A DNA stretch of 64,000 bases from Acidimicrobiales bacterium (GCA_041394345.1 JAWKIN010000003.1:62737-126736), one strand, 5' to 3'. Shown: positions 264 through 26,721, numbered from the stretch's first letter. Translations and numbers: made by a program. The notes: generated from the letters alone by a model not told the origin.

Positions 264-1204
264 TCAACCAGTCAGACCAGACCAGATACACCGTTTTCCT
301 GACAGTCCCAGCCGCCGCGTCGTGATGAGTGGAAAGGTGGTTGATGAACCCGGTTGCTGACTGCAACGACGCCACATAGGTATCACGATCGGTCTCGGTT
401 TCGACGCATAGGCCGGGTTCGGTTGGTTCTGATGCCCACACCACGCAATGAGGGAAGGTCGGATCGATTGGTGTTGCCGGCCCTGCGGGGTTGTGCGCAA
501 CACGACGGGGATGTGAGCAACTTGGATTGGGACGCCCACACCGAATGGGTCCTGGGCGCATGGCCGGGTGACGGTGCCGTCGGCTGCTTCGAAACGGATG
601 TTCTCGAGTGTGACGCGGGCGCCTTCGTTTCCGCTGATACTGACTTGGGTGAGTTTCTCGAGCCTGATGAAGAAATCGGTGCCTGGTCCGTTGTTGGTGT
701 AGACGAGGGCGTCTGCTCGTCGTTGTTCGAGCACGGTGGGTCGGTATGGGGTTGACCAGCCGTGGGAATCGAGGCTGGCGCTGACGGTGCCGTCAGTGTT
801 CGCCCGGTAGAGATCAAAAAGAAGCAGCAAACCTTCATCCTTGGCTACCTCCATGTCGTTTGCCATGTCTTTGCCGAGCTGTTCGTAGTCGATGGATACA
901 TACGGGCTGAGCCAGCCCGGCACCAGGCCTTCAATCCTGACGCCCATATCGTCAAGTAAGTCCTCGGCGTAGGCAGCCAGGCTGTCCCATTGCCCCAGGT
1001 AGTGCTCATCGAAGTTGTCGAGTGCTTCTTCGTTTTCTGTGCCGACGATCTGAGCCCAGTGAGCGAACGCTGGGCCGTGCAGCGTGAGCCCGATAGCGAT
1101 GCGTGAGATCGTCCTGATGCTCTCATACTCATGCGGTTCGAAGGCTCCGAAGTGTTCATAGTCATGTATTGCCCATTCCTCTGCGTCTGGTTGTTTGGAT
1201 GCTC
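264..1204 (-). pseudogene. ardA: ArdA-family antirestriction protein homologue with its 5' end displaced by the IS3 element and an unassigned ~180-aa C-terminal extension
   Basis: This is ORF 264..1235 (-). Residues ~14-145 (KQPDAEEWAIHDYEHFGAF...FDEHYLGQWDSLAAYAEDLLDDMG...YVSIDYEQLGKDMANDMEVAKDEGLLLLFDLY) match the ArdA signature (EEWAIHDYE.F, YIDYE..G.D). The first ~10 codons of the called ORF (MRCHLHVQQT) are encoded by the IS3 left inverted repeat. The distal ~180 codons have no family I recognise and run toward the IS256 end. Confidence 0.55.
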
Positions 1205-1272
1205 GGGTCTGCTGCACGTGTAGGTGACATCTCACATGACTTGCCTGCGGGCTTGTCTGGAAGGATGTTCAC

Positions 1273-1566
1273 ATGCCCAAGCCCTATCCCCGCGAGTTCC
1301 GCGACGACGTGATCCGAGTCGCCCGCAACCGCGACGACGGTGTCACCCTCGAGCAGGTCGCCAAGGACTTCGGGATCCATCCGATGACCTTGTCGAATTG
1401 GATCAGCAAAGACTCGATCGATAACGGCACCAAGCCGGGTGTCACGTCGTCGGAGTCGGTGGAGAACCGTGAGCTTCGCCGGCGGGTGAAGCTCCTCGAA
1501 CAAGAGAACGAAGTGTTGCGCCGTGCCGCCGCTTATCTGTCCCAGGCGAACCTGCCGGGAAAATGA
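1273..1566 (+). CDS. IS3-family transposase OrfA (HTH plus leucine-zipper-like C-terminus)
   Basis: The 97-aa ORF reads MPKPYPREFRDDVIRVARNR...LEQVAKDFGIHPMTLSNWI...ENRELRRRVKLLEQENEVLRRAAAYL, which is the typical IS3 OrfA architecture. Confidence 0.9.
   Translation: MPKPYPREFRDDVIRVARNRDDGVTLEQVAKDFGIHPMTLSNWISKDSIDNGTKPGVTSSESVENRELRRRVKLLEQENEVLRRAAAYLSQANLPGK
1557..1563 (+). promoter_or_regulatory. Programmed -1 ribosomal frameshift heptamer G GGA AAA joining orfA to orfB
   Basis: In the orfA frame the sequence reads CCG GGA AAA TGA. The heptamer G_GGA_AAA fits X_XXY_YYZ. After a -1 slip the next codon is ATG at 1563, which is the orfB frame. Confidence 0.7.
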
Positions 1567-2438
1567 TGTTCCCGCTCGTCCGCGAGCTTGCCGCCGACGG
1601 GATCCCCGTCGCGGTGACGTGCCGGGTTCTCGATCTTTGCCGCCAGCAGTACTACCGGTGGCTGACCGCACCGGTCACCGACCAAGAACTCGACCACGCC
1701 CATCTCACCAACGCGCTCTTCGACGCCCATCGTGACGACCCCGAGTTCGGCTACCGGTTCCTCGCCGACGAGGCCCGCCAGGCCGGCCACGATGCGTGTG
1801 ACCGGACGGTGTGGCGGATCTGCGCGGACAACGGCTGGTGGTCGGTGTTCGGCAAGAAGAAGAACCGGAAGAAGTCAACGCCGGGAACACCGGCCCATGA
1901 CGATCTGGTGCGCCGCGTGTTCACCGCCGAACGGCCGAACGAACTGTGGCTCACCGATTTGACCGAGCATCGCACCGACGAAGGAAAGCTCTACCTGTGT
2001 GCGATCAAGGACGTGTTCTCGAACCGGATCGTCGGCTATTCGATCGACGATCGGATGAAGGCACGACTCGCTGTCACCGCGCTCGACAACGCCGTCGCCC
2101 GCCGCGGCGATGTCGCGGGTTGTGTCCTGCATTCGGATCGAGGGTCGCAATTTCGTGCACGGAAACTGCATCGTGCGCTCGCCCGTCATGAGATGGTCGG
2201 CTCGATGGGCCAGGTTGGTTCGGCCGGTGACAACGCAGCAATGGAATCGTTTTTCTCACTGCTGCAGAAGAACGTTCTCAACCGACGGCGCTGGGCCACA
2301 CGCGAGGAGCTGCGGATCGCGATCGTGACCTGGATCGAGCGGACCTACCACCGACGCCGCCGGCAAGCACGCCTCGGCCGATTGACCCCCATCGAATACG
2401 AAACCATCATGAACCCTCAGACAGCAATCGCTGCCTGA
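1563..2438 (+). CDS. IS3-family transposase OrfB (DDE/rve integrase core)
   Basis: The 291-aa ORF carries a DDE triad context: LWLTDLTEH, VLHSDRGSQF, NAAMESFFSLLQKN. It overlaps the orfA stop by 4 nt in the -1 frame. Confidence 0.9.
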   Translation: MMFPLVRELAADGIPVAVTCRVLDLCRQQYYRWLTAPVTDQELDHAHLTNALFDAHRDDPEFGYRFLADEARQAGHDACDRTVWRICADNGWWSVFGKKKNRKKSTPGTPAHDDLVRRVFTAERPNELWLTDLTEHRTDEGKLYLCAIKDVFSNRIVGYSIDDRMKARLAVTALDNAVARRGDVAGCVLHSDRGSQFRARKLHRALARHEMVGSMGQVGSAGDNAAMESFFSLLQKNVLNRRRWATREELRIAIVTWIERTYHRRRRQARLGRLTPIEYETIMNPQTAIAA

Positions 2439-3715: not shown

Positions 3716-6521
3716 CTAGCTACAGCCGCTGGTGTTGCCGCAGTCGGGGCACGCATGACAGGACCCAGCACGCTGCATCTTGATGCCGCACTGCATGCAG
3801 ATCGGTGCATGCGGGTCACTGACGGGCGCTGAGCTGTGCCCGGTTGCCGCTTCCTTGGCGACGAGGTCAATCATCGCCGCCGGCGACTCGATCGACGGCT
3901 TGTCGACCGGCAGCTCACTACCTTGCACCGTGGAGGCCTCTTCGACGCCCGGCAGGGTCTGCTGGGTGCGCTCGGAGGTGGTGAAAATACCAAGGTCGGC
4001 GCGCTCTTCGTAGGGGATGTAGAGCACGGCAAGCTTGCGGAACAGGTAGTCGATGATCGAGGTCGCGATACGAATATCAGGATCATCGGTCATGCCAGCT
4101 GGCTCGAACCGCATGCCAGTGAACGTCTCGACGAAGTTGCGCAAGGGCACGCCGTACTGAAGGCCATGGCTCAGAGAAATAGCAAGCGCATCCATGATGC
4201 CCGCCAACGTTGAACCCTGCTTGGAGACCCGAAGGAAGACCTCGCCGGGGCGCCCGTCCTCGTATTCGCCAACCGTGACGAACCCTTTGCAGTCGGCGAC
4301 GCGGAACTCGAAGGTTCGCGACGAACGGTTGCGAGGGAGGCGCTCACGAACGGGCTTGTAGACAACCTTCTCAAGTACCTCGGTGACCTTGATCGCCGCA
4401 TCGGCGACACCAGCGGCCGCCGCTGGCGTAGCGTCGTCCTTCTTGGCCGTCGAGAGAGGCTGGCCGACCTTGCAGTTGTCGCGATAGATGGCGACGGCCT
4501 TGACACCCATGCGCCACGCATCCATGTGGAGTTGCTCGACGTCTTCGACGGTTGCGTCCTCTGGCATGTTGACCGTCTTGGAGATGGCGCCCGAGATGAA
4601 CGGCTGCACGGCAGCCATCATCTTGACGTGGCCGAGGTAGTGGATCGTGTTGTCGCCCATTGAGCAGGCGAACACGTCAACGTGCTCAGGCTTGAGGTGT
4701 GGCGCACCCATGATCGACTTATTGAGGTCGAGGTAGGCCGCAATCTCAACGATCTGACTATCGCTGTAGCCCAAGCGTCGCAAGGCACGCGGCACCGACT
4801 GATTGACAATGGTCATCGTGCCGCCGCCGACCAACTTCTTCATCTTCATGAGGCCGAGGTCGGGCTCGATGCCCGTCGTGTCGCAGTCCATCAGCAGACC
4901 GATGGTGCCCGTTGGGGCCAGCACCGTCGCCTGGGCGTTGCGCACACCGACCTGGAGGCGCCAGCTCACAGGTTGCGTCCCATGCTTCTTGGGCCGCACC
5001 GAGGATGTCGACCGGGGCGAGCCTTTCGTCGATATCGGCGGTGGCCGAACGGTGCTGTTCGAGCACTCGCAACATCGGCTCACGGTTGACTCATAGGCCG
5101 GCATGGACCCATGCGAGCAGCCGTCTTGACGGAGGTGGGAGATAGGCGTGGCCCGTCAGCCGTGGAGCGTGGGCGGGCGTAGGCGCGGCCCGCTTCGGAG
5201 TCGTAGGCCAAATGAGGTTCATCAGCAAGGCGCCGATGTTGGCATATTGAGGCCGAGTTGACGGAATTGGCGAGAGGTCTCACCGTGATGCCTTCTGTCG
5301 GGTAGTCGGCTCGGCCAACGAGGATCTCCTGAGCAGAAGAAATGCTCGATCGCCACCTTGTAGCCCTCAACGTTGAACGTGTCGTCGTCGTTGGTGAAGC
5401 CCATGAGGTTGAGGCTGGCGAGATTGCACGCCGAGTTGTCGAGGTGCATGTATTCGCTGCACGGGTTGGAGCCGTTGATCTTGCCGGTCACCGCCGAGGT
5501 GTGCCAGCGGTTGATCGTCGAGTCGAACTGCATGCCCGGATCAGCACATTCCCAGCTGGCCTGGGAGATCTGGCGTGATCAGCTCACGGGCCTTGACGAC
5601 TCGGACAACGTCGCCCGTCGTACGGGCGATGAGTTTCCAGTCGCCATCGGCTTCGACGGCTTCCATGAATTCGTCGGTGACCCGGATGGAGTTGTTGGCG
5701 TTTTGATATTGGATCGAGTGGCTGTCGGCGCCATCATCCATGTCGAAACCGGCGTCGCCGAGGACGCGGGCCTTGCGTTCCTTCAATGGCCTTGCACCAG
5801 AGGAACTTTCGATTGGAAACGATCGACGTCGAGCATGACCATCTTGGCAGCCCGACGTGTCTTTCCGCCGTCTACGGTGCCGAGCCGACGAGTCGGCGCC
5901 ACGCATGAAGCTGACGGGCCCCGACGCAGTGCCACCACCCTTGAGCAGTTCGTAGCTCGAGCGGGATCTTCGAAAGGTTGACACCAGCACCGAGCCACCC
6001 TTAAAGATGGAAGCCTTCCTCGACGTACCAGTTGAGAATTGCGTCCATCTTGTCGTCGACGGCCAGATGAAACAGGCGGAGTGCTTGCTGGGGCACGCCC
6101 TCGACGCCGATGTTGAACCAGACGGGTGAGTTGAACGCACCCTTTGGTGGATGATGAGGTACTTCAACTCGTCGGAGCAGATCTGGGCCTCGTCCTCGCT
6201 CACTGTGAAGTAGCCGCCCTCACGGCCCCACGCAGTGATGGTGTCGACAACCCGGTCGGCCACGGTCTTGAGTGACGACTCGCGCTCTGGAGTTCCTGGA
6301 TTACCACGGAAGTACTTCTGGGCGAGGATGTTGGTGGCGTTTACCGACCAAGTTGACGGGACCTCGACGCCCAACTGTTCGAAGGCCACCTCGCCCGTCT
6401 TCCAATTGGAGATGCGAGCGTCACGCTTCTCCCAGATCACGGTGTCGTACGGATGGATGCCTTCGGTGGTGAAGTGGCGGCGGAGGACCAATACCGGTCT
6501 GCTTTCGGGGGCAAGTGTCAT
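3716..6521 (-). pseudogene. nrdJ: Class II (adenosylcobalamin-dependent) ribonucleotide reductase NrdJ, at least 4 frame changes as sequenced
   Basis: ORF 3716..5104 ends ...[30 protein letters not shown] 5222..5533 carries the active-site motif NPCSEYMHLDNSACNLASLNL. ORF 5783..5998 carries GGKTRRAAKMVMLDVD. ORF 5541..6908 carries the N-terminus from ATG 6521 (MTLAPESRPVLVLRRHFTTEGIHPYD..ILAQKYFRG..SACFI..IFKGGS..LKGGGTASGPVSFMRGAD..QYQNANNSIRVTDEFM). GGAAG lies 8 nt upstream of the ATG. Confidence 0.9.
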
Positions 6522-6649
6522 TACAACTTCCTGGAATGAGTCCTGAGGGACTCGATATGTGAGGGAAGGTAGCGCCACCGGGCCACGTCGTTGTGGCTGC
6601 GATGTCGATACCAATGATGTCGCTTCCGGACAAGGTGTCCGGCTGGGGG

Positions 6650-6713
6650 GTGACGTGGAAAAGTGACGTGTCGGAAAGTGACGTGTCGGGCTGGTAGTGA
6701 CGGAGGACGTCAC
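6650..6713 (+). repeat. GTGACG/ACGTCAC repeat cluster in the nrdJ 5' leader
   Basis: GTGACG occurs at 6650, 6663, 6678 and 6697, with inverted CGTCAC at 6708. There is a perfect tandem AAGTGACGTGTCGG at 6661-6674 and 6676-6689 (15-bp period). GTGACG-gagga-CGTCAC forms a 6-bp hairpin at 6697-6713. Confidence 0.65.
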
Positions 6714-6822
6714 AACACACGAGGTCGCAGTCGAACAGGTCGCGGAGGGTGCTGATCCGGTGAGGGAGGGGACACAATCTGCAGATGACTTGTTCTTCGG
6801 CGGGGACAGAAAGAGAGCGAGC

Positions 6823-6861
6823 GGTGAAACGAAACATGCAGCTACCGGAGGTGGCTGCATG
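6823..6861 (-). terminator. Hairpin plus T-tract in the nrdJ leader (candidate attenuator)
   Basis: The minus strand reads CATGCAGC-cacctccggta-GCTGCATG followed by TTTCGTTTC. It has an 8-bp stem and lies about 50-90 nt downstream of the NrdR box and about 300 nt upstream of the nrdJ ATG. Confidence 0.35.
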
Positions 6862-6912
6862 TGGCCAAGACTGAACGTTCGATTCTTTCGCCGGGGGGAC
6901 GAAAGCACTGAA

Positions 6913-6928
6913 ACACTACATCTTGTGT
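6913..6928. promoter_or_regulatory. NrdR box
   Basis: ACACTACATCTTGTGT matches 14/16 positions of the published NrdR consensus acaCwAtATaTwgtgt. It lies upstream of nrdJ, and nrdR itself is encoded at 13999..14469. A second, poor candidate (ACACTAGATGGAGTAG, 6954-6969) is not convincing. Confidence 0.55.
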
Positions 6929-7594
6929 TTCTCAGGTCCTCGGAGAGAACGACACACTAGATGGAGTAGACATACAACACTGAAATTACATCGCTGTCAA
7001 CGACTGTGAACAAGATACTCAGGGGGTCTGACAGTGTTCGGGGCAAGTCCTGCTTGGCTTGCTGTGAGGATGACCACACACCGTGTTTTGGTCAGGAAAG
7101 AAACTTTTTCCGATCTGGTCGACATCCATCCGAACCGCTCAGATTCGACTCGCTTCAGGTTGAAAAAGAACATGACCGGCGAGACCGGTCAGCTGAGCGG
7201 GTCGAGGTTGGCAACCGCAAGGCATCCGATGCCCGCTGCGTCCACCCAAGGGCAACGTACGTGCGCCCGGCCATACCGCTACACCGGACCGCCTGACTGG
7301 TCGTTCAAAACCATAGGGTCTCGCTCCTGTGGATCGTGTGTGGACGACCCTGTGTATTCATGTGAATTCGCGAAGAATTTGTGGACACCACGCTTGGCGA
7401 GTCGCACCGCCCGGAGAGAACAAAACCCGTCAGATACTCGGCTTTGGCCCGAGTGGCGTAGCTTCTGACGCCACTCGAGCGATTCGCCGGGCCGACTGGA
7501 GCTAAGACTTCTTACCCAGAACGCCCCGCTGGCACTGATTCGATGGCACAATTTCGGGCCGCAGATCGACTGTTGCGGAACAGTCGTGCGGTCC

Positions 7595-10435
7595 ATGAGC
7601 AGCGTTTGGCAGACGCTGCGACGATCACAAAGGCCCTTAATGCGACGGATATCCCAATTCTTTCTCTCACTCATGCTGCTCGCTGGCGTCGTCGTCGGCG
7701 TCGCAGCCTCAAGTCTCGCCGTGGTCAATGACTGGGAGATCTACGCACCGTGGGGCGTCACCGCTCGCCACCGATCGTCAGACACGAAACAACATCTACG
7801 TCTACGAGATCGAAAACATCAACGGCATCGTGTACGTCGGCGGAGCTCTTCAACAGGTCGTCCATCGCGACTCGCCTGACCAACCGATCGACCAACCCTT
7901 TATCGCGGCGTTCGACGCCGCCAGCGGTGACCCGGTCGCCACCTTCCGCCCTGTCCTCGACCATCCGGTGTATGCCATCACCGAACACCCAACGACCGGT
8001 GCCATCATCGTCGGCGGTGAATTCACCATGGTGAATGGTCAGCCCCAAACAGGACTCGTCGCCCTCGACCCTCTCACGGGAGCAACCGATACGTCCTATG
8101 ACGTCGACATCGTCCTTGGCGGCAGTTGGCGAGCAACCGTGTGGGCCCGACTCCGACGGCGCCTCGATCTACATCGGCGGCGGCTTCGACCGAGCAATCG
8201 GCACCAACGGCGGCTTCAATCGATCCAACCTCGTCAAGACCGACCTCCAGGGCGCCATCGACCCAACCTGGGATCCCGCCGTCAGCGGCGGTGGCGTGTG
8301 GACGATAGCTCTGACGACCGACCAACAACGCCTCGTCTTCGGCGGTCGTTTCAACCTGGTTGACGGGGCGTATCGACCCGGCATTGACAGATGGTCGAGA
8401 GCACGGGTAGCGGCACCCTGACCAATACGTTCACGCGGTGGGAGCAAGTCGCCCCCTACTGCTATGGCGGCTATCCCGGCTGCATCTTCGTGTACGACCT
8501 CGACGTCGCCGACGGCAAGATCCTGATCAGCGCAGCGGAACACTTCTCGGCACTCCACGACACAACAGCCCGCATCAAGCTCTGAGAGCGAGTCCAACGA
8601 CACCCAAGCCGGGCCTCTACAACGGGCTCGCTTGGACGACCCGGACACGGAGGCGACAACGGCATCGGCTTGTATTACGCCTACAACCTCCAGACCATGG
8701 CGCGAGAGGTCACGACCAGTGGACGACTCAGCACCGGGGCTGGCGGCTTCGCCTATGAAGCCGGACCGAACGGGTGCGTCTGGTTTGGTGGCGCCATCGG
8801 TGGCATGGATCTGGCCGACGTGCCAGGCAACAGCAAAGTAGCTGCGCAGTTCAATCTCGGCTTCATGTGCCCACCCGGCACGCCGGTCCCAGCGTCTTCA
8901 CTCGACATCACCAACTGGCAAACTCCATCGGGCTTGCTTGTCCGCGGGCTTCGCACCACCGACGTCGGCTACACCTATGCCGTCTTCGCCTACACCCCAG
9001 CAGCCGACGCAGTTCGCCACGACGTTCTGGTCGATGGTGTCATCGTCGGCAACGACAACGACGGCTCATTTGCGTTGAGCGACCTCCGACCGGGCCGTGA
9101 CGGCCGACGCCTTCGTCCGATCGGTGAACGCCGCTGGCGAGACGGGGACCGCGCTCATCCGGGTTACGGCCAACTCAGCCACCGGCGATCGCCCGACAAC
9201 AAGCCAGGCGTTAGCGTGCGGCAGATCACCGACTACTCGGCCTCGTACCCCGCCAGCAACGCAAACGACGACAACATCGCCAACACGTCAATCACGGGCT
9301 ACGGATTCCAGCGTTGGTGGGAGATCGACCTCGGCTCCTCCCAAGACCTCTCACAGCTGGAGATCTATGCCCGAGCTGGCGCACCCCAGCAGACATCGAA
9401 CTCACTTCCTTGTCTCGGCAACGCTCACCTCTGACTCACTTGCGGTCAACCAGGCGCTCGCCTCGACCGACGTCTACATCGCCGGCAACATGGGCTACCC
9501 GACGACGGTGGCCCCAAACGACACCGGCCGGTACATCCGCATCCAGACGGACAACAACAACTATCTCTCCATCGGCGAGGTCAACGTCACCGGAGTCGCC
9601 GACGTGGCCGGCGAGGTGGTCCTTGCCAATCCGTTCTCGATTGACCGAACGCCACCAGCGGGCAACCTGACCTGCAGCCTCGCCGTCAACGCCACCAACG
9701 TCACCATCACCTGGACCGGCGACAAGGCGGACGCAATCGGTCGTGTTCCGCACCCCAACCGGCGCCAACACCTCATATGCGTCGTTGACCTCCCCGGCAC
9801 CTCGTTCACCGACACTCAGCAACGGCGTCACCTACAACTACGAAATCCGTGAACGCACCGGCCGTCAACGGCGACCCAATCAACTGCGGCGACGTGTCGC
9901 CACCGGATCCGCCACCAGCGGGCAACCTGACCTGCAGCCTGCCGTCAACGCCACCAACGTCACCATCACCTGGACCGGCGACACCAACGCGGACGCAATC
10001 GTGTTCCGCACCCCAACCGGCGCCAACACCTCATGAAAGGCCGCGTTGACCTCCCCGGCACCTCGTTCACCGACACCCTCAGCAACGGCGTCACCTACAA
10101 CTACGAAATCCGTGAACGCACCGGCCAAGTCAACGGCGACCCAATCAACTGCGGCGACGCGGCCGCCACCGATCCGCCACCAGCGGGCAACCTGACCTGC
10201 AGCCTCGCCGTCAACGCCACCAACGTCACCATCACCTGGACCGGCGACACCAACGCGGACGCAATCATCGTGTTCCGCACCCCAACCGGCGCCAACACCT
10301 CATGGCGCGCACGTGCGACACCTCCCTGGCACCTCGTTCACCGACACCCTCAGCAACGGCGTCACCTACAACTACGAAATCCGTGAACGCACCGGCCAAG
10401 TCAACGGCGACCCAATCAACCGCGGCAACACCTAA
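7595..10435 (+). pseudogene. Large secreted multidomain protein (signal peptide, beta-propeller-like repeats, F5/8 type C discoidin-like domain, three tandem ~87-aa repeats); many frame changes and one in-frame TGA
   Basis: The signal/TM segment is RRISQFFLSLMLLAGVVVGVAASSLA (ORF 7586..). Repeated IVYVGG.L / IIVGGEFTMVNG / IYIGGGFD / LVFGGRFNLVDG blocks appear in ORFs 7728.., 8035.. and 8391... The discoidin-like part reads NANDDNIANTSITGYGFQRWWEIDLGSSQDLSQLEIY ... RYIRIQTDNNNYLSIGEVNV (ORFs 8670.., 9097..). The C-terminal repeats read PPAGNLTCSLAVNATNVTITWTGD..ADAI.VFRTPTGANTS...LPGTSFTDTLSNGVTYNYEIRERTGQVNGDPINCGD. The terminal TAA is at 10433-10435. Confidence 0.7.
9652..10435 (+). repeat. 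Three near-identical tandem coding repeats (~260-265 bp each)
   Basis: The unit start CCACCAGCGGGCAACCTGACCTGCAGCCT recurs at 9652, 9912 and 10177. The copies differ by a few substitutions and 1-3 nt indels. Confidence 0.85.
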
Positions 10436-16120: not shown

Positions 16121-17008
16121 CTAGCTTGCTGCTATCGCGTCGCGCTCCTTGGCGTCGCGAGCAGCCTGGGCGATCCGCCGCTGCTCAAGCGATTGGGCGG
16201 CGATCTCGTCAACCTCGCCATCGGTGAAGCCGGCCATTTTACGGAATTGGCGGGCCAGCTTGATCGGTGAGTCGTCTTCCTCGCCCCGGGCGCCGCGGCC
16301 ACTAAAGAGGCCGTCGACGACGCGTTGGAACTCCAGCGCTGCCTTCCGCCGCTCCGGATCGTTTTCGGTCACCGCCCGCAACCAGCGCGACCCCATCTTC
16401 ACATGCGTCACCTCGTCGGCGAGCATGTAGTCCTCGCAATACTCCAGGACGGGGTCGCCAAGGGCGACGCCAAACTCGCGCATCTGGGTAAAGACGTCGA
16501 TGGCAAGCCCTTCGAGCGCACGGTTGACGCCAGCCAGGCGAAACACCGGGTCCTCGTGGCATGCGGCCTCAAACAGGGTCGTCGTCTCGACATACTCGCC
16601 GAGCTCGCCGCCCATATGCTCGGCCAGCTTGATCGAGATCTCGCAGTGGCGCGCCTCGTCCCAGCATTGGCGAGCCATGTCGAGCTTCAGTTCGTAGGGG
16701 ACCTCGTCGGTGCCGAAGTCGAACGCCGTGCGGCCCGCGCCCTCGAGCGCCTGGATCTCGCCGACAAAGATGCCATGCATCCGACGGCGGGAGCGCTCGC
16801 CTGCATCTTCGGCCTCGGGGTCGACGGTTCCCAGTTCGAGCGTGTCACGCTCGTCAAGAAAGCGGGCCTCGCTGTCTTGGCGAGTGAATCGGGCATCGCG
16901 AGCGAGGGCGGATGGTGGAATGTTCTTGCGCACTGGGTCCCCTCCAGGTTCTGGAACAGTGCGCAGCTTAGAACGTTCTCCGGGCTCGACGCCAGGCACG
17001 GGCCCCAA
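16121..17008 (-). CDS. Ferritin-like DUF455 family protein
   Basis: The 295-aa ORF carries FVGEIQALEGAGRTAFDF...LDMARQCWDEARHCEISIKLAEHMGGELGEY...YMLADEVTHVKMGSRWL. Confidence 0.7.
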   Translation of the reverse strand: MGPVPGVEPGERSKLRTVPEPGGDPVRKNIPPSALARDARFTRQDSEARFLDERDTLELGTVDPEAEDAGERSRRRMHGIFVGEIQALEGAGRTAFDFGTDEVPYELKLDMARQCWDEARHCEISIKLAEHMGGELGEYVETTTLFEAACHEDPVFRLAGVNRALEGLAIDVFTQMREFGVALGDPVLEYCEDYMLADEVTHVKMGSRWLRAVTENDPERRKAALEFQRVVDGLFSGRGARGEEDDSPIKLARQFRKMAGFTDGEVDEIAAQSLEQRRIAQAARDAKERDAIAAS

Positions 17009-17030
17009 ACGGGCACACTTAGTGCCGACT

Positions 17031-19432
17031 ATGGGCCCCTATCAACCACTCGGTCTCCCGATCGATGACGTCGCCGACGAGGTGTCCACGGCTATGCGCC
17101 ATGGTGGCGCAGTGATCACCGCCGAGCCGGGAGCGGGAAAATCAACGGTCGTTCCGTTGCTGGCCGCCCAGGCAATCGACGGCACGATCTATCTTTCGGA
17201 GCCTCGCCGAGTCGCCGCTCGGGCAACGGCTCAGCGCTTGGCCGAGCTCGCCGGCACCGAGGTCGGCGATGGGGTCGGACTCATCATGCGGGGCGAGCAC
17301 CGACGCTCGGCGCGCAGCAAGATCGTCGTGATGACTGAGGGCGTGTTGGCCCAGATCATTCGCTCGGAGCCCGACCTTCCTGGGGTAGGCGCCGTCATCT
17401 TCGACGAGTTTCACGAACGCAGCCTGCATGCCGACCTAGGACTAGCGATGAGTGTCGAGGCTCGCGATGCGCTCCGACCCGACCTCGCATTGGTGGTGAT
17501 GTCGGCCACCATCGACGCCATCCCGATTTCGGGCCTACTGGGTGGCGCCCCGATTATTGCGGCTGCTGGTCGAACGTTTCCCGTCGAAACCGTTTGGTCC
17601 AATCGGGTACCTGAAGCGCGGTGGGCCGGTCATGTGGCGCAGCTCACCGCCACCGCAGCCGCCCAGGTTCGCGGCAGTGTCATTGTTTTGTGCCCGGACG
17701 TCGAGGATCAGCGACGTCATCGGCGAGCTGGCGCGGCTCGGTCTGTCCGGCGACGGACTTCATGGCGGTAGCGACGCACCAACCCAACGCCGCCTGCTGG
17801 GCCCGACGACGAGCCAGAGAATCATCGTGGCCACGTCGGTCGCCGAGACCTCGCTCACGATCCCAAACGTCGAGGCCGTCGTCGATGGCGGTCTAGCGAA
17901 GGGCCGCGTACGACCCCCGGACAGGACTCGGCCGACTCGAAACCGGCTTTGTAACGAGGTTCAGCCGACCAGCGGCGGGGCCGAGCCGGCCGACTCTCGC
18001 CGGGGTCTGCTTCGAGCGTGGTCGGAGGAGGATCATCGGCACCTCGACAACGCCATCTCCCGAGGTGCTCAGCGGCGACCCGCTCGAGCTCGGCTTCGCT
18101 CTGGCCCGGTGGGGAGACCCCTACGGCGTGTCGCTTCCTCTACTCGATCACCCGCCAGCGCATCGACTCGATGCGGCGTTTGCCCGCCTCGCCGACCTCG
18201 GACTCACCACCGAGACCGGTGCAGTGACCCCCTTCGGACATGCGGCCGCCACACTCGGGGTCCACCCGCGAGCGGCTGCGCTTCTGCTTCGCGCCGCGCC
18301 GACGCCTTCGCTCGCGACTGCTGCGCTCGCGGCTGCGGTGCTCGACTCCGACCAGTATCCACGGTCAGACGACTTCGAGGCGGAGGTCAGGCTGGCGAGC
18401 AAGACACTTCAGAGAGAAGCCGACCGACTCGCCAAAGCAGCCACATCGAATTCAGAACCTCCCGTCGCACGACGTACCGGTACGAGCGATGCACCAACCG
18501 ATCTAGCCAACCTGGCCGCCGCGGCCTGGCCCGACCGTGTCGCATTGCGACGCGACGAGACCGAGCGCTACCTGCTGGCCACTGGACGCGAAGTAAAGCT
18601 CCGACGCAACAGCCCGCTGCTCGGTTCCGAAGCACTCGTGGTGGTCGATGCTGATGCCGATGCAACCGCAGGGTTTGTGGCCCGAGCGCTCCCCCTGAGT
18701 CGTGGCGACGCAATCAACAGACTCGAGCCTCTCGCCGCAGAGCGAAACGAGGTCAGGTGGGATCAACCTCGCGGCCGGGTCGTGGCCGAGCAGGTCATTG
18801 CCTACGGCTCGCTTGTTTTCCGCCGGCGCCCCGACCCCGAGCCTGCCCCCGGACTCGTTCGCTTGGCGATCCACGACGCAGTCAGACGCAGCAATCTCGA
18901 ACTCCTTCGATGGACCGATGCGGCACTCGCCACACGAGCACGCTTGCAGTGGCTCCACCAACAAGATCCGTCAGGGTGGCCCGACGTGAGCACGTCATGC
19001 CTGGTCGACCGACTCGATGAGTGGCTCGAGGTCGGTGGGAGCCAAAACATCACTGCGATTGGCGAGATCCCTGTTGCCTCGTCATTGCTTCGACTTCTCG
19101 ACTGGAAGCAGCGCGACGAACTGAAGCTCCTCGCCCCCGCTTCACTTGCGACGCCAGACGGGAGAAGTGTCGCTGTGAGCTACGAAAGTGGCGAGCCCGT
19201 GTGGGCGGTTCGTTTGCAGTGGCTCCTCGGCCTCGACACGCACCCGACGGTCGGACCAAGTCGATCGCCGATCACCATCGAATTGCTGTCACCGGCCGGT
19301 CGACCAGTGCAGCGGACCCGTGATCTACCCGGGTTTTGGCGCGGCAGCTATCAGGCGGTTCGGTCCGATCTACGCGGACGGTATCCGAAGCACAATTGGC
19401 CAAGCGATCCGCTCAAGCCCGACGAACGGTAG
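17031..19432 (+). pseudogene. hrpB: ATP-dependent RNA helicase HrpB (DEAH-box), at least 3 frame changes
   Basis: From ATG 17031: ...AVITAEPGAGKSTVVP...VIFDEFHERSLHADLGLA...VVMSATID (ORF 16710..). RIIVATSVAETSLTIPNVEAVVDGGL appears in ORF 17542... The HrpB C-terminal domain is in ORF 18065..19432. Confidence 0.85.
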
Positions 19433-23443: not shown

Positions 23444-24917
23444 CTACTCCGGCACGGTGGCGGTCACAAAGTCGCTTAGGCGACTCGCCGACGCCGGCTC
23501 GAGTCGGGCCCGGAGCCGCATGCCGTCGTCTTCGGTCGTCTCGACCAACACCTCGCCTTCCCGGTGCAGGGCAGCGAGCATGTCACCTCGGGCCCACGGG
23601 ATGAAAAGCTCGTAGATACTCGATTGCGCCCGTATCCGATCGCCAATGGCAAGCAGCAGCTTGTCGATGCCTTCGCCGGTCTGAGCCGAGACAGCGACCG
23701 ATCCGTCGTTGTGGCTCAAATGCCATGGCAGATCAGTGGCAATATCGGCCTTATTGAAGACCATGAGCTCGGGAATATCTTTTGCCCCGATCTCAGACAA
23801 CACTTCGCGGACCGCCTCGATATGGCCACCGACGTCGGTGCCGGCGCCGTCGATCACGTGGATCAGCAGATCGGCTTCGGCCGCAACTTCGAGCGTCGAT
23901 TTGAACGCTTCAACCAGTTGGTGAGGGAGTTTCTTGACGAACCCAACGGTGTCGGTAAGCAGGATCGTTTCGCCGCCCGGCAACTGCGCCTGCTTCGTGG
24001 TCGGGTCGACGGTCGCGAATAGCTGGTCTTCCACCTTCACATTTGACCCCGTGAGCGCATTGAGAAGGGTCGACTTACCGGCGTTTGTGTAACCGACGAT
24101 CGACACAACCTTGTAGGGCGATCGAGTACGGGCCTTGCGTTGGTTCGCTCGGCGGTCGGCGATGTTTGCGAGATCTCGCTCAAGTTTGTGGATGCGGCGG
24201 ACGAGCCGGCGCCGGTCGACCTCAAGCTGTGTCTCGCCGGGACCGCGTGTGCCAATGCCACCGGCCTGCTGCGAGAAGTCCTTCTTGCCGCGAAGGCGCG
24301 GCAGTCGATAGCGCAGCTGAGCAAGCTCAACTTGCGCCTTACCTTCGGCTGATGTTGCGTGCTGAGCGAAGATGTCGAGGATGACACCCGTGCGGTCAAG
24401 CGCCGTTCGTTTGAGAATGCGCTCGAGGGTGAACTGTTGGGCGGGCGTGAGCACGTCATCAAAGACGACGGTGTCGACGTCATGGGTCAGACACGCCTCA
24501 AGAATCTCCTGCACCTTGCCCTTGCCGACATAGGTCGACGCATGTGGTGAGTCGCGCTTCTGTGTGATGCGCTCGACGACGTCGGCGCCCGCGGTGTCAA
24601 TGAGCAGCTCGAGTTCGTCGAGCGACTGCTCCATCTGGAGTTCGGTGGTCCGCCCTTGCAGCAACCCGACGACGACAATTCGCTCACGGAAACCGCGATC
24701 AAGGAAACCACCTTCGACCGTTGCACCAAACTCGCCGAAGGCACCGCGGTGGTGTCGTTTGGATCGAGGTGCAGATCGCCGGCCCCGTCGTCGGCCCCGT
24801 CATCGGACCCGGTGAAGATGAACTCATCGCCGTCATCGACGAAATCGCTCGAGTCGAAGCCAACGCCGTCAGGGTTGTCGTCTGGTTCGAGACCCCAGTC
24901 GAGTTTGTCGTAACCAT
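23444..24917 (-). pseudogene. hflX: GTPase HflX (core intact; acidic N-terminal extension needs frame changes)
   Basis: ORF 23444..24664 carries VSIVGYTNAGKSTLLNALTG..DQLFATVDPTT..LTDTVGFV..FNKAD. Upstream, FGATVEGGFLDRGFRERIVVVGLLQGR continues in frame. An acidic segment (GYDKLDWGLEPDDNPDGVGFDSSDFVDDGDEF) sits in another frame, reachable from ATG 24917 if one base is restored. Confidence 0.85.
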
Positions 24918-25746: not shown

Positions 25747-26721
25747 TTAGCTCGAAATTATTGCACCGACCGACCGGTTCACGTCGGCAGGTTCGCCCTT
25801 GGCCCAAATCGCCTGCGCCCGCTCGACCAAATCGGGCGCCGTCGCCGGCAGCCAGTGGATGCGCGGATCGCGCCGGAACCAGCGTTGTTGGCGTCTCGCA
25901 AATCGGTGCGTGCGCCGCTTGGCTTCATCGAGCGCCTCGTCCAGCGTGCAATGACCTTCCAAATGCTTGATGAGCTCGCGATAGCCGAGGGCTTGACGGG
26001 CTGGCCGTGACAGGTCGGTCCTGAGCAGCGCCTCGACTTCGGCGAGGAAGCCGGCCGCCATCTGGTGTTCGTATCGCTCGTCGATTCGGCGATCCATCAG
26101 CTCCCTATCGATCTCCAGGCCGATCTGCACGAAGCGGCTGGGCGGATAGGCATCGACACCGGGACCAAAGCTCGAGAAGGGACGACCGGATCCGACGCAC
26201 ACCTCAAGGGCTCGCATGACCCGGCGCCGGTTGTTCGGTTCCATTTTGGCCGCTGCCATTGGGTCGAGTGCGTGGAGTCGTTGCCACAGTTTCTCGGTGT
26301 GTGGTTCGCTCTCGAGCTCCAGAACAACCTCGGGGTAGGTCCCCGGCAGCTCGAACGCATCGACGATCGAGCGAATGTAAAGCCCAGTGCCGCCGGCGAG
26401 GATAAACGGGGTACTGGTCGCGTCGAGCGACTCGATGACGGGTCGGATCGCATCGTTGTAGGTCGCCACGCCACACTCTTCACTCGCGTCGACAATATCT
26501 ATGCCGTGGTGCACGACGCTGAGTCGCTCGGCCTCTGTCGGCTTCGCCGTTCCGATATCCATCCGGGCATAGACCGCCATGGCGTCGGCTGAAACTATGT
26601 GGGCTTCCGCCGTCGCTTGGGCGAGCGCAAGGGCGAGGCCCGTCTTACCCGAGGCCGTTGGCCCCAGCACGACAAGCGGCGGGCGATTGTCTGGTGTCGT
26701 CGACGCAATCTGCTCGGTCAC
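25747..26721 (-). CDS. miaA: tRNA dimethylallyltransferase MiaA
   Basis: This is the C-terminal 325 codons of ORF 25747..27423: VTEQIASTTPDNRPPLVVLGPTASGKTGLALALA...IVSADAMAVYARMDIGTAKP...ILAGGTGLYIRS...ARRQQRWFRRD. The GTG start at 26721 overlaps the stop of the upstream gene (GTGA). Confidence 0.9.
   Translation of the reverse strand: MTEQIASTTPDNRPPLVVLGPTASGKTGLALALAQATAEAHIVSADAMAVYARMDIGTAKPTEAERLSVVHHGIDIVDASEECGVATYNDAIRPVIESLDATSTPFILAGGTGLYIRSIVDAFELPGTYPEVVLELESEPHTEKLWQRLHALDPMAAAKMEPNNRRRVMRALEVCVGSGRPFSSFGPGVDAYPPSRFVQIGLEIDRELMDRRIDERYEHQMAAGFLAEVEALLRTDLSRPARQALGYRELIKHLEGHCTLDEALDEAKRRTHRFARRQQRWFRRDPRIHWLPATAPDLVERAQAIWAKGEPADVNRSVGAIISS

Follow-up and report, generated by a model that had tools for sequence, protein, structure and literature searches.

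A long, fast-evolving leader behind a predicted NrdR operator at the nrdJ gene of an Acidimicrobiales bacterium, and a structured RNA beyond it

The DNA between the start codon of nrdJ, the gene for a class II, B12-dependent ribonucleotide reductase, and the NrdR box upstream of it is, in the Acidimicrobiales genome considered here, the long, fast-evolving leader of an ordinary NrdR-controlled gene, and no evidence of a dedicated attenuator or riboswitch was found in it. The locus was studied in a stretch of 64,000 nucleotides (GCA_041394345.1 JAWKIN010000003.1:62737-126736), hereafter the window, in which nrdJ is read from the minus strand, as are the features described below unless another strand is given. 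An initial annotation of positions 6522-6930, made from the sequence by itself, had listed a NrdR box, a leader of unusual length, a hairpin with a T-tract, pyrimidine-rich tracts and a block of short repeats, and had proposed from these a layer of control acting after initiation. Apart from small corrections, every feature listed was confirmed on the minus strand.

Ribonucleotide reductase sets the supply of the building blocks of DNA, and NrdR is, to our knowledge, its only widely known dedicated regulator. The explanation favoured here, to which a probability of about one half is given, combines a promoter repressed by NrdR, a lineage-specific leader of some 440 nt that would act through its composition, and a separate input from further upstream. 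The comparison set consisted of 160 related Acidimicrobiales nrdJ loci (designated L001 and so on), which, together with the window, gives 161 upstream regions.

The nrdJ promoter and its predicted NrdR operator

The NrdR box at 6913-6928 (ACACTACATCTTGTGT; as a minus-strand feature, ACACAAGATGTAGTGT) matches the consensus at 14 of 16 positions and, as had been stated, is the only good one, being the sole site in the 64 kb with at most three mismatches to the 16-bp consensus on either strand (0.24 matches are expected by chance; the one observed is a palindrome and scores on both strands). Between its end and the nrdJ ATG lie 391 nt, which had been taken to mean that it is displaced from its promoter. 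It is not: this box (box 2) is the downstream half of a predicted tandem operator that directly abuts a conserved nrdJ promoter, P2, at 6971-7000. P2 has a -35 hexamer TTGACA (7000-6995), a conserved spacer GTAATTTCAGTG and a -10 hexamer TGTATG (6976-6971), following the pattern TTGACA-N18-TGTAAT, and the operator starts 2 bp past the -10. Upstream of nrdJ, 131 of the 161 loci have a module of the type TTGACA-N16-19-TGTAAT, which is nearly invariant (TTGACA-N5-GTAA(C/T)TACAGTG-N-TGTAAT) and is followed directly by one or two NrdR boxes.

The second box, box 1 (CTACTCCATCTAGTGT, 6954-6969), is weaker. The positions critical for NrdR binding are C4, A6, A8, T9, T11, and G13 (PMC13584703); box 2 has all six of them, and box 1 has five (C4, A8, T9, T11, and G13), with A6 replaced by C. 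Box 1 lies 41 bp upstream of box 2, start to start, leaving a linker of 25 bp (6953-6929), while the linkers reported to be bound by NrdR measure 15-16 bp or 26-27 bp (PMC13584703). In the related loci, the boxes are spaced at 31-32 or 41-42 bp from start to start, that is, with linkers of 15-16 or 25-26 bp, and this correspondence with the bound linkers was counted in favour of a genuine operator. NrdR is predicted to bind at both boxes. Since the boxes directly follow the conserved -10, the 391 nt below box 2 would belong to the 5' untranslated region, which would come to about 440 nt from a predicted start site within box 1 to the ATG. Initiation would then occur at a sigma-70-type promoter (7000-6971), with NrdR repressing it at this step in the ordinary way. 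What makes the arrangement of interest is that, in an actinobacterial order that is poorly studied and mostly uncultured, the NrdR operator forms part of a promoter whose sequence is very strongly conserved.

Two further observations concern the same DNA. In about 130 loci, the P2 spacer (6977-6989) is almost invariant, reading GTAA(C/T)TACAGTG before TGTAAT, and it forms an imperfect palindrome with the -10. A third NrdR box was considered there and rejected, as the spacer does not match the box pattern; it may be the site of another factor or a sigma-specific element. The other observation concerns the RNA made from 6913-6969, in which the two NrdR boxes, being similar palindromes, can pair to give a stem-loop at the predicted 5' end of the mRNA, as they can in the relatives; such a stem-loop could affect the stability of the mRNA.

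The leader: composition without conserved sequence

The sequence of the leader (6522-6912) is not conserved. When the upstream region of the window was compared with the 160 related loci by blastn (word size 7), similarity was limited to the promoter and operator (7013-6912) and to 7372-7326, and 6522-6911 gave none. The closest relatives, sought among GTDB representatives and JGI metagenomes, do not exceed 79% NrdJ identity, and with these the leader cannot be aligned, which precludes a covariation comparison. Rfam was searched with 6500-6990, 7140-7340 and 5500-8500, and with the 491-nt leader stretch on its own, at E values up to 10 and with lax filters; even under the most permissive filters, the leader matched no B12 riboswitch, no nrdJ motif and no other family, in agreement with the annotation's finding of no B12-box or known riboswitch signature, and no Rfam match was obtained in 18 related loci at the gathering score. 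In the 131 loci, box 2 and the ATG lie between 20 and 704 nt apart (median 111). The length that had been called unusual is real, at 391 nt, and yet not rare, since leaders of at least 300 nt occur in 12 of the 131 loci, and those of the window's nearest relatives measure 274-614 nt.

A degraded nrdR or another small gene in the leader was also considered and rejected. Two open frames (129 and 138 codons) run through it and have no Pfam match; their openness is explained by the scarcity of stop codons in C-rich sequence poor in A and G. The ATG at 6521 is preceded by AGGAAG (6532-6527) and opens a protein beginning M-T-L-A-P-E, and the NrdJ homologues all begin at the same M-(T/A)-L-A.

What recurs between lineages is the composition and the tandem repetition. 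The pyrimidine-rich tracts that had been noted correspond to 194 bases at 6833-6640 (C 80, T 48, G 36, A 30), and within the whole window the most C-over-G-skewed 190 nt on either strand are those at 6645-6834. A stretch of 80 nt within the leader (6707-6628; C 38, G 11) ties for the window extreme. Among 20 independent long leaders, 11 have their best 80-nt C/G window in the top 1% of their own locus, a tail fraction that is a maximum over many overlapping windows and is not a true p-value. Both 6707-6628 and 6834-6645 have the properties of rut-like (Rho utilisation) sequences, being C-rich, G-poor and weakly structured over at least about 80 nt of untranslated RNA.

Tandem repeats, sought with Tandem Repeats Finder (period 8-30, score at least 45), are present in 16 of 77 leaders; shuffled sequences gave 0.5, the 77 coding controls none, and the 75 upstream controls 3. 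When leaders were grouped into 40 independent clusters, those without mutual similarity, 11 clusters had repeats (0.25 in shuffles). The periods run from 10 to 17 nt, most of them falling at 13-15 nt. With 22% G, compared with 32% for the leaders overall, the repeat regions are poor in G; their units differ between lineages, and TCA, TCAC, and ACG are weakly enriched in them. The window contributes a unit of 15 nt, CCGACACGTCACTTT, in two perfect copies (6689-6660) and a partial third (6659-6650), together occupying 6650-6689; the perfect tandem pair that had been reported is thus confirmed, with a unit one nucleotide longer than the 14 nt given and with the additional partial copy.

Because this composition and these tandem repeats recur in independent leaders, it may be inferred that selection acts on the general character of the leader, namely its length, its C-richness and its lack of structure, that it grows by slippage, and that Rho loading is the known mechanism that fits best. 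According to this explanation, the leader would be lineage-specific and would contain no ligand-sensing riboswitch; it would have grown and been turned over quickly, partly by tandem duplication, of which the 15-nt repeat would be an example, while keeping across lineages its character (long, C-rich, G-poor, weakly structured) rather than its sequence. The tract would work through its composition, most probably as a rut-like Rho entry site on untranslated RNA, and the output of nrdJ would then be set by the speed with which the leader is cleared and the promptness with which the start codon is engaged. The nrdJ leaders of this order have repeatedly evolved long C-rich tracts with tandem repeats.

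The 3' part of the leader (6527-6642) has predicted hairpins at 6642-6626, 6597-6582 and 6553-6538, and a fold computed for this sequence alone, which is not significant (z = -1.8), pairs CCTTCC (6569-6564) with the Shine-Dalgarno sequence AGGAAG. This predicted pairing and the hairpin with U-tract at 6862-6826 are local to this genome, where they may add pausing or translational damping. A small hairpin, CTTTCG-N9-CGAAAG (6885-6905), directly follows box 2.

Several points weigh against the explanation preferred here. The TGTATG of the -10, which is one A short of the relatives' TGTAAT, and the linker of 25 bp rather than 26-27 bp could weaken the promoter-operator module, or either could reflect an assembly error of one base; sequencing errors could likewise be present in the leader, given the patch of insertions and deletions in nrdJ described below. 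A promoter consisting of a -10 only, close to the ATG, is also conceivable. The role of Rho is read from base composition, for which the C/G tail fraction has the limit given above. Finally, some relatives manage with leaders of 20-60 nt; expression of nrdJ does not, then, call for a long leader, and most of its length could be neutral.

A first alternative is that the leader is essentially a neutral spacer, lengthened and shortened by replication slippage, whose hairpin, repeats and composition would play no part in regulation, with control exerted by NrdR and by whatever acts at the promoter-like element further upstream (P1, see below). This is a real, though lesser, possibility. It would account for the lack of sequence conservation over the 160 loci, for the hypervariable length, for repeat units that differ by lineage and have no common core, and for a hairpin and U-tract that are private to this genome. 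It does not account so readily for a C-over-G skew that recurs in independent lineages, nor for tandem repeats that are some five times as frequent as in the adjacent upstream DNA and whose periods cluster at 13-15 nt. Moreover, the whole leader is predicted, from this sequence alone, to fold better than its shuffles (z = -3.06).

Another possibility is based on the ACGTCAC motif, which, with its counterparts in other leaders, would be a set of protein sites (for a roadblock or a proximal-promoter transcription factor, or for an RNA-binding protein) providing a specific extra control. Five such cores had been counted; the cluster exists, the exact motif standing three times on the transcribed strand (6684-6678, 6669-6663, and 6656-6650) and once on the other (6707-6713), with CCGTCAC as a near match. 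The inverted repeat GTGACG-N5-CGTCAC at 6697-6713, which had been described as a hairpin, does fold as one (-7.8 kcal/mol, z = -4.4). Four cores within 64 nt, arrays in 11 of 40 leader clusters, the over-representation of TCA and TCAC in repeat units, and the frequencies in other leaders of ACGTCAC (6 against 1.3 expected) and of GTNAC (58 against 37.5) would all suit such sites. In the window as a whole, ACGTCAC occurs 16 times against 13.9 expected by chance, and it is unusual only in its clustering. Not every unit contains a common core, and no core common to different lineages was found in the repeat units; unbiased k-mer searches over 63 independent leaders recovered only the ribosome-binding site AGAAAGAGG, which the window does not have; the period of 13-15 nt does not fit the helical repeat of tandem DNA binders; and no cognate protein was identified. 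Two particular candidates for the block were set aside on their spacing: a CRP-like site (GTGA-N6-TCAC), where the spacing here is GTGA-N9-TCAC, and an MtrA-like site (an 11-bp direct repeat), where the period here is 15 nt. Protein sites are judged unlikely.

Very unlikely is the model of the initial annotation, a dedicated attenuator or novel type of riboswitch in which 6862-6826 would be a regulated terminator and the elements downstream its sensor. The hairpin is there (6862-6834), with arms of 13 nt rather than the 8-bp stem that had been described, one mismatch and a loop of 3 nt; it is stable (-17.5 kcal/mol, z = -2.97) and is followed by a U-rich tract, TTCGTTTC (6833-6826), and the fold of the leader as a whole, better than its shuffles, could also be cited in its favour. 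Yet the tail (UUCGUUUC) is U-rich but interrupted, the scan for the terminator consensus made no call there, and a single site of this kind is close to chance (1 found, where 1.4 would be expected in 1.5 kb). Such a hairpin with a U-tract is missing from all of the 15 other long leaders compared. The lack of an Rfam match, of any homologous sequence in the 160 loci and of a common repeat core also argues against it, and an attenuator layer inside 6522-6930 is left without support. The expectation that the hairpin and the repeats would be conserved in relatives was not borne out either, since only the C-rich composition and the tandem repetition recur.

Elsewhere in the set, a different leader block is conserved in sequence. 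It comprises the first 95 nt or so after box 2 in about 20 Acidimicrobiaceae-type loci (L024, L032, L037, L038, L040, L053, L065, L066, L069, L073, L080, L092, L095, L097, L106, L107, L122, and others) and reads TGAGGCG...CCGGGCGCTGGATCGGGAGAC.CGCCGTGAGACACCGCTCCGCTGGA...GGGGTGACGGCG. RNAalifold gives it a weak consensus of 13 pairs, 3 of them changed on both sides; the window does not have this block.

The upstream promoter-like element and its structured RNA

Some 250 bases upstream of the flagged leader, beyond the NrdR promoter, lies a conserved structured RNA (7169-7297) downstream of a promoter-like element of its own, P1 (7310-7333). P1 reads TCCACA-N12-TATGGT, with a -10 of the TANNNT type, and TCCACA-N11-13-TANNNT is found upstream of nrdJ in 33 of the 161 loci and in none of the reverse-strand or downstream controls. 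It forms part of a DnaA-box-like cluster (7328-7388) with exact TCCACA at 7385-7380, 7344-7339 and 7333-7328, and these repeats hold the same position in related loci. Two sequences, GTGTCCACA and TCGTCCACA, share 8 of the 9 positions of the actinobacterial DnaA box TTGTCCACA, and DnaA may bind the repeats. Four 9-mers within one mismatch of TTGTCCACA or TTATCCACA lie on one strand within about 530 nt (6860-7388), while in the window as a whole such 9-mers are at chance level (14 against 13.5 expected). Two of these four lie outside the cluster: TTGTTCACA at 7005-7013 lies just upstream of the -35 of P2, and TTGGCCACA at 6860-6868 abuts the leader hairpin.

The RNA consists of a closing helix and core blocks, namely GCGGTATGG (7279-7271), a hairpin followed by CCCTTGGGT (7252-7244), and AACCTCGACCCG (7209-7198). 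The nhmmer program ties this stretch to four of the related loci (L082, L001, L081, and L022). In an unfitted MAFFT alignment of six relatives, RNAalifold found 35 pairs, 7 of them compensatory, and a covariance model built from the same six matches 7297-7169 of the window over its full length (28.3 bits, E 1.4e-5 to 8.8e-5). In an alignment of eight sequences, which was fitted to the covariance model and so favours the structure, 95% of the cells pair and 12 of the 35 pairs are changed on both sides, with slid controls at 32-55%. A test of the closing helix by cognate and non-cognate duplex energies was supportive but noisy. Against Rfam, 7140-7340 gave no match at E values up to 10, nor did the relatives at the gathering score.

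At its 3' end, the RNA overlaps a terminator-like hairpin, TGACCGGTCtcgCCGGTCA followed by TGTTCTTTTTC (7162-7191; -13.8 kcal/mol, z = -3.5). The bases of this hairpin are also the 3' strand of the closing helix, which makes the two structures, whose folds are of similar energy, mutually exclusive. Downstream of the RNA, one relative (L152) has a strong terminator and another (L019) a U-run, and most members of group F have neither. In six loci (L019, L006, L058, L072, L129, and L152), a P1-driven RNA lies directly before nrdJ without an intervening NrdR promoter; this position, together with the terminator of L152, argues for a role in cis. The second input would consist of P1 with its DnaA-box-like repeats (7388-7310) driving the structured RNA, in which the closing helix would compete with the terminator-like hairpin, and transcription from P1 may read through to nrdJ.

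The narrow model, R1, gave no significant match to the other P1-associated RNAs of groups A-E, whose kinship with the RNA of the window is suggested by the promoter motif, the closing helix and short blocks. In 13 loci (L071, L077, L133, L142, L129, L152, L072, L058, L132, L104, L134, L015, and L093), P1-driven RNAs between P1 and nrdJ or P2 have long closing helices, whose sequences differ by locus, and common blocks (GGATGGTGG, CTCGGTGGGTC, CCTTGGGG, and TACCTG); these RNAs, on which the model from the window's group does not reach significance, may be a second variant of the one in the window.

A structured RNA without an Rfam match and with its own DnaA-box-like promoter element adjoins nrdJ, and 7388-7162 is a more novel object than the leader. 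Should the RNA turn out to be a switch, the synthesis of deoxynucleoside triphosphates (dNTPs) would have a further, new form of regulation; if it is not, what is left is a gene under ordinary NrdR control whose leader is unusually long and evolves fast. A more speculative view, which can be held only tentatively, is that class II ribonucleotide reductase in Acidimicrobiales is under a hitherto undescribed three-part control by a DnaA-box promoter with a new RNA switch, by the NrdR promoter, and by a C-rich repeat leader that would either admit Rho in a tunable way or offer an array of sites to an RNA-binding factor. The RNA, whose closing helix competes with a terminator, would then be a riboswitch or a protein-binding switch tying the supply of dNTPs to the initiation of replication or to a metabolite.

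The nrdJ gene, its surroundings and related systems

The nrdJ gene (3716-6521) has 80% identity to its homologue in L001, and the N-terminal 128 residues of the protein are 74-79% identical to B12-dependent ribonucleotide reductases from metagenome-assembled genomes of Acidimicrobiia and Acidimicrobiales. It contains 17 single-base insertions or deletions and one in-frame stop, all within 1.2 kb (4958-6143). A decaying pseudogene, with a leader decaying along with it, would be consistent with these lesions, with the altered -10, with the lower GC content of the first 8 kb of the window and with the adjoining genes for a transposase and ArdA, but this reading is scarcely credible and was rejected, since the amino-acid identity to the nearest homologue stays at 80% throughout, in the frameshifted patch as well as on either side of it, and since the confinement of all indels to 1.2 kb is the signature of an assembly error. 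For these two reasons, the indels are probably due to a poorly polished patch and not to decay; the one-base oddities in the -10 and in the linker between the boxes may have arisen likewise.

Just past nrdJ, on its 3' side, lie a gene for the antirestriction protein ArdA (264-1235, minus strand) and one for a transposase of the IS3 family (1563-2438, plus strand), and the GC content of the first 8 kb of the window is about 4% below that of the remainder; together, these suggest that a mobile element borders the nrdJ locus. Further away, an HrpB-type helicase (16710-19432, plus strand) is split over three overlapping frames, with its DEAD, Helicase_C and HrpB_C domains in separate open reading frames, which implies two more frameshifts, and hflX (23444-24664) and miaA (about 25747-26600) appear intact.

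Among known systems, the promoter resembles those repressed by NrdR at nrdRJ and nrdAB of Streptomyces coelicolor and at the nrd operons of Escherichia coli, which also have two partly palindromic 16-bp boxes at the promoter of a reductase gene, with the critical positions kept and a spacing equal to a whole number of helical turns. It differs from them in that nrdR is not co-transcribed upstream of nrdJ, in the linker of 25 bp, in the leader of about 390 nt after the operator, and in the strong conservation of the promoter spacer, GTAAYTACAGTG. As RNAs of Actinobacteria that act in cis and are linked to reductase genes or to B12, the Rfam nrdJ motif of Streptomyces (RF03034) and the cobalamin riboswitches (RF00174 and its variants) are natural points of comparison, but neither the leader nor the upstream RNA matches them at E values up to 10 with lax filters.

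Rho-dependent attenuation is known in the long 5' leaders of mgtA and corA in Salmonella and of rho in E. coli. The nrdJ leader resembles these in being long and untranslated, with a C-rich, G-poor tract of at least 80 nt and little structure; the likeness is one of composition, and we know of no characterisation of Rho from this order. The upstream RNA (7297-7162) is comparable to riboswitch platforms of the terminator/antiterminator type, insofar as the 3' strand of its closing helix is a terminator-like hairpin; it differs from them in that the U-run after the closing helix is missing in most relatives and in that the NrdR promoter stands between the RNA and nrdJ.

Finally, the promoter of nrdAB in E. 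coli carries DnaA boxes. There, as upstream of nrdJ, sequences of this type accompany control by NrdR, the DnaA-box-like 9-mers being clustered upstream of the reductase gene; the putative boxes of the Acidimicrobiales locus, unlike those of E. coli, belong to a promoter-like element of their own, situated further upstream and followed by a structured RNA.

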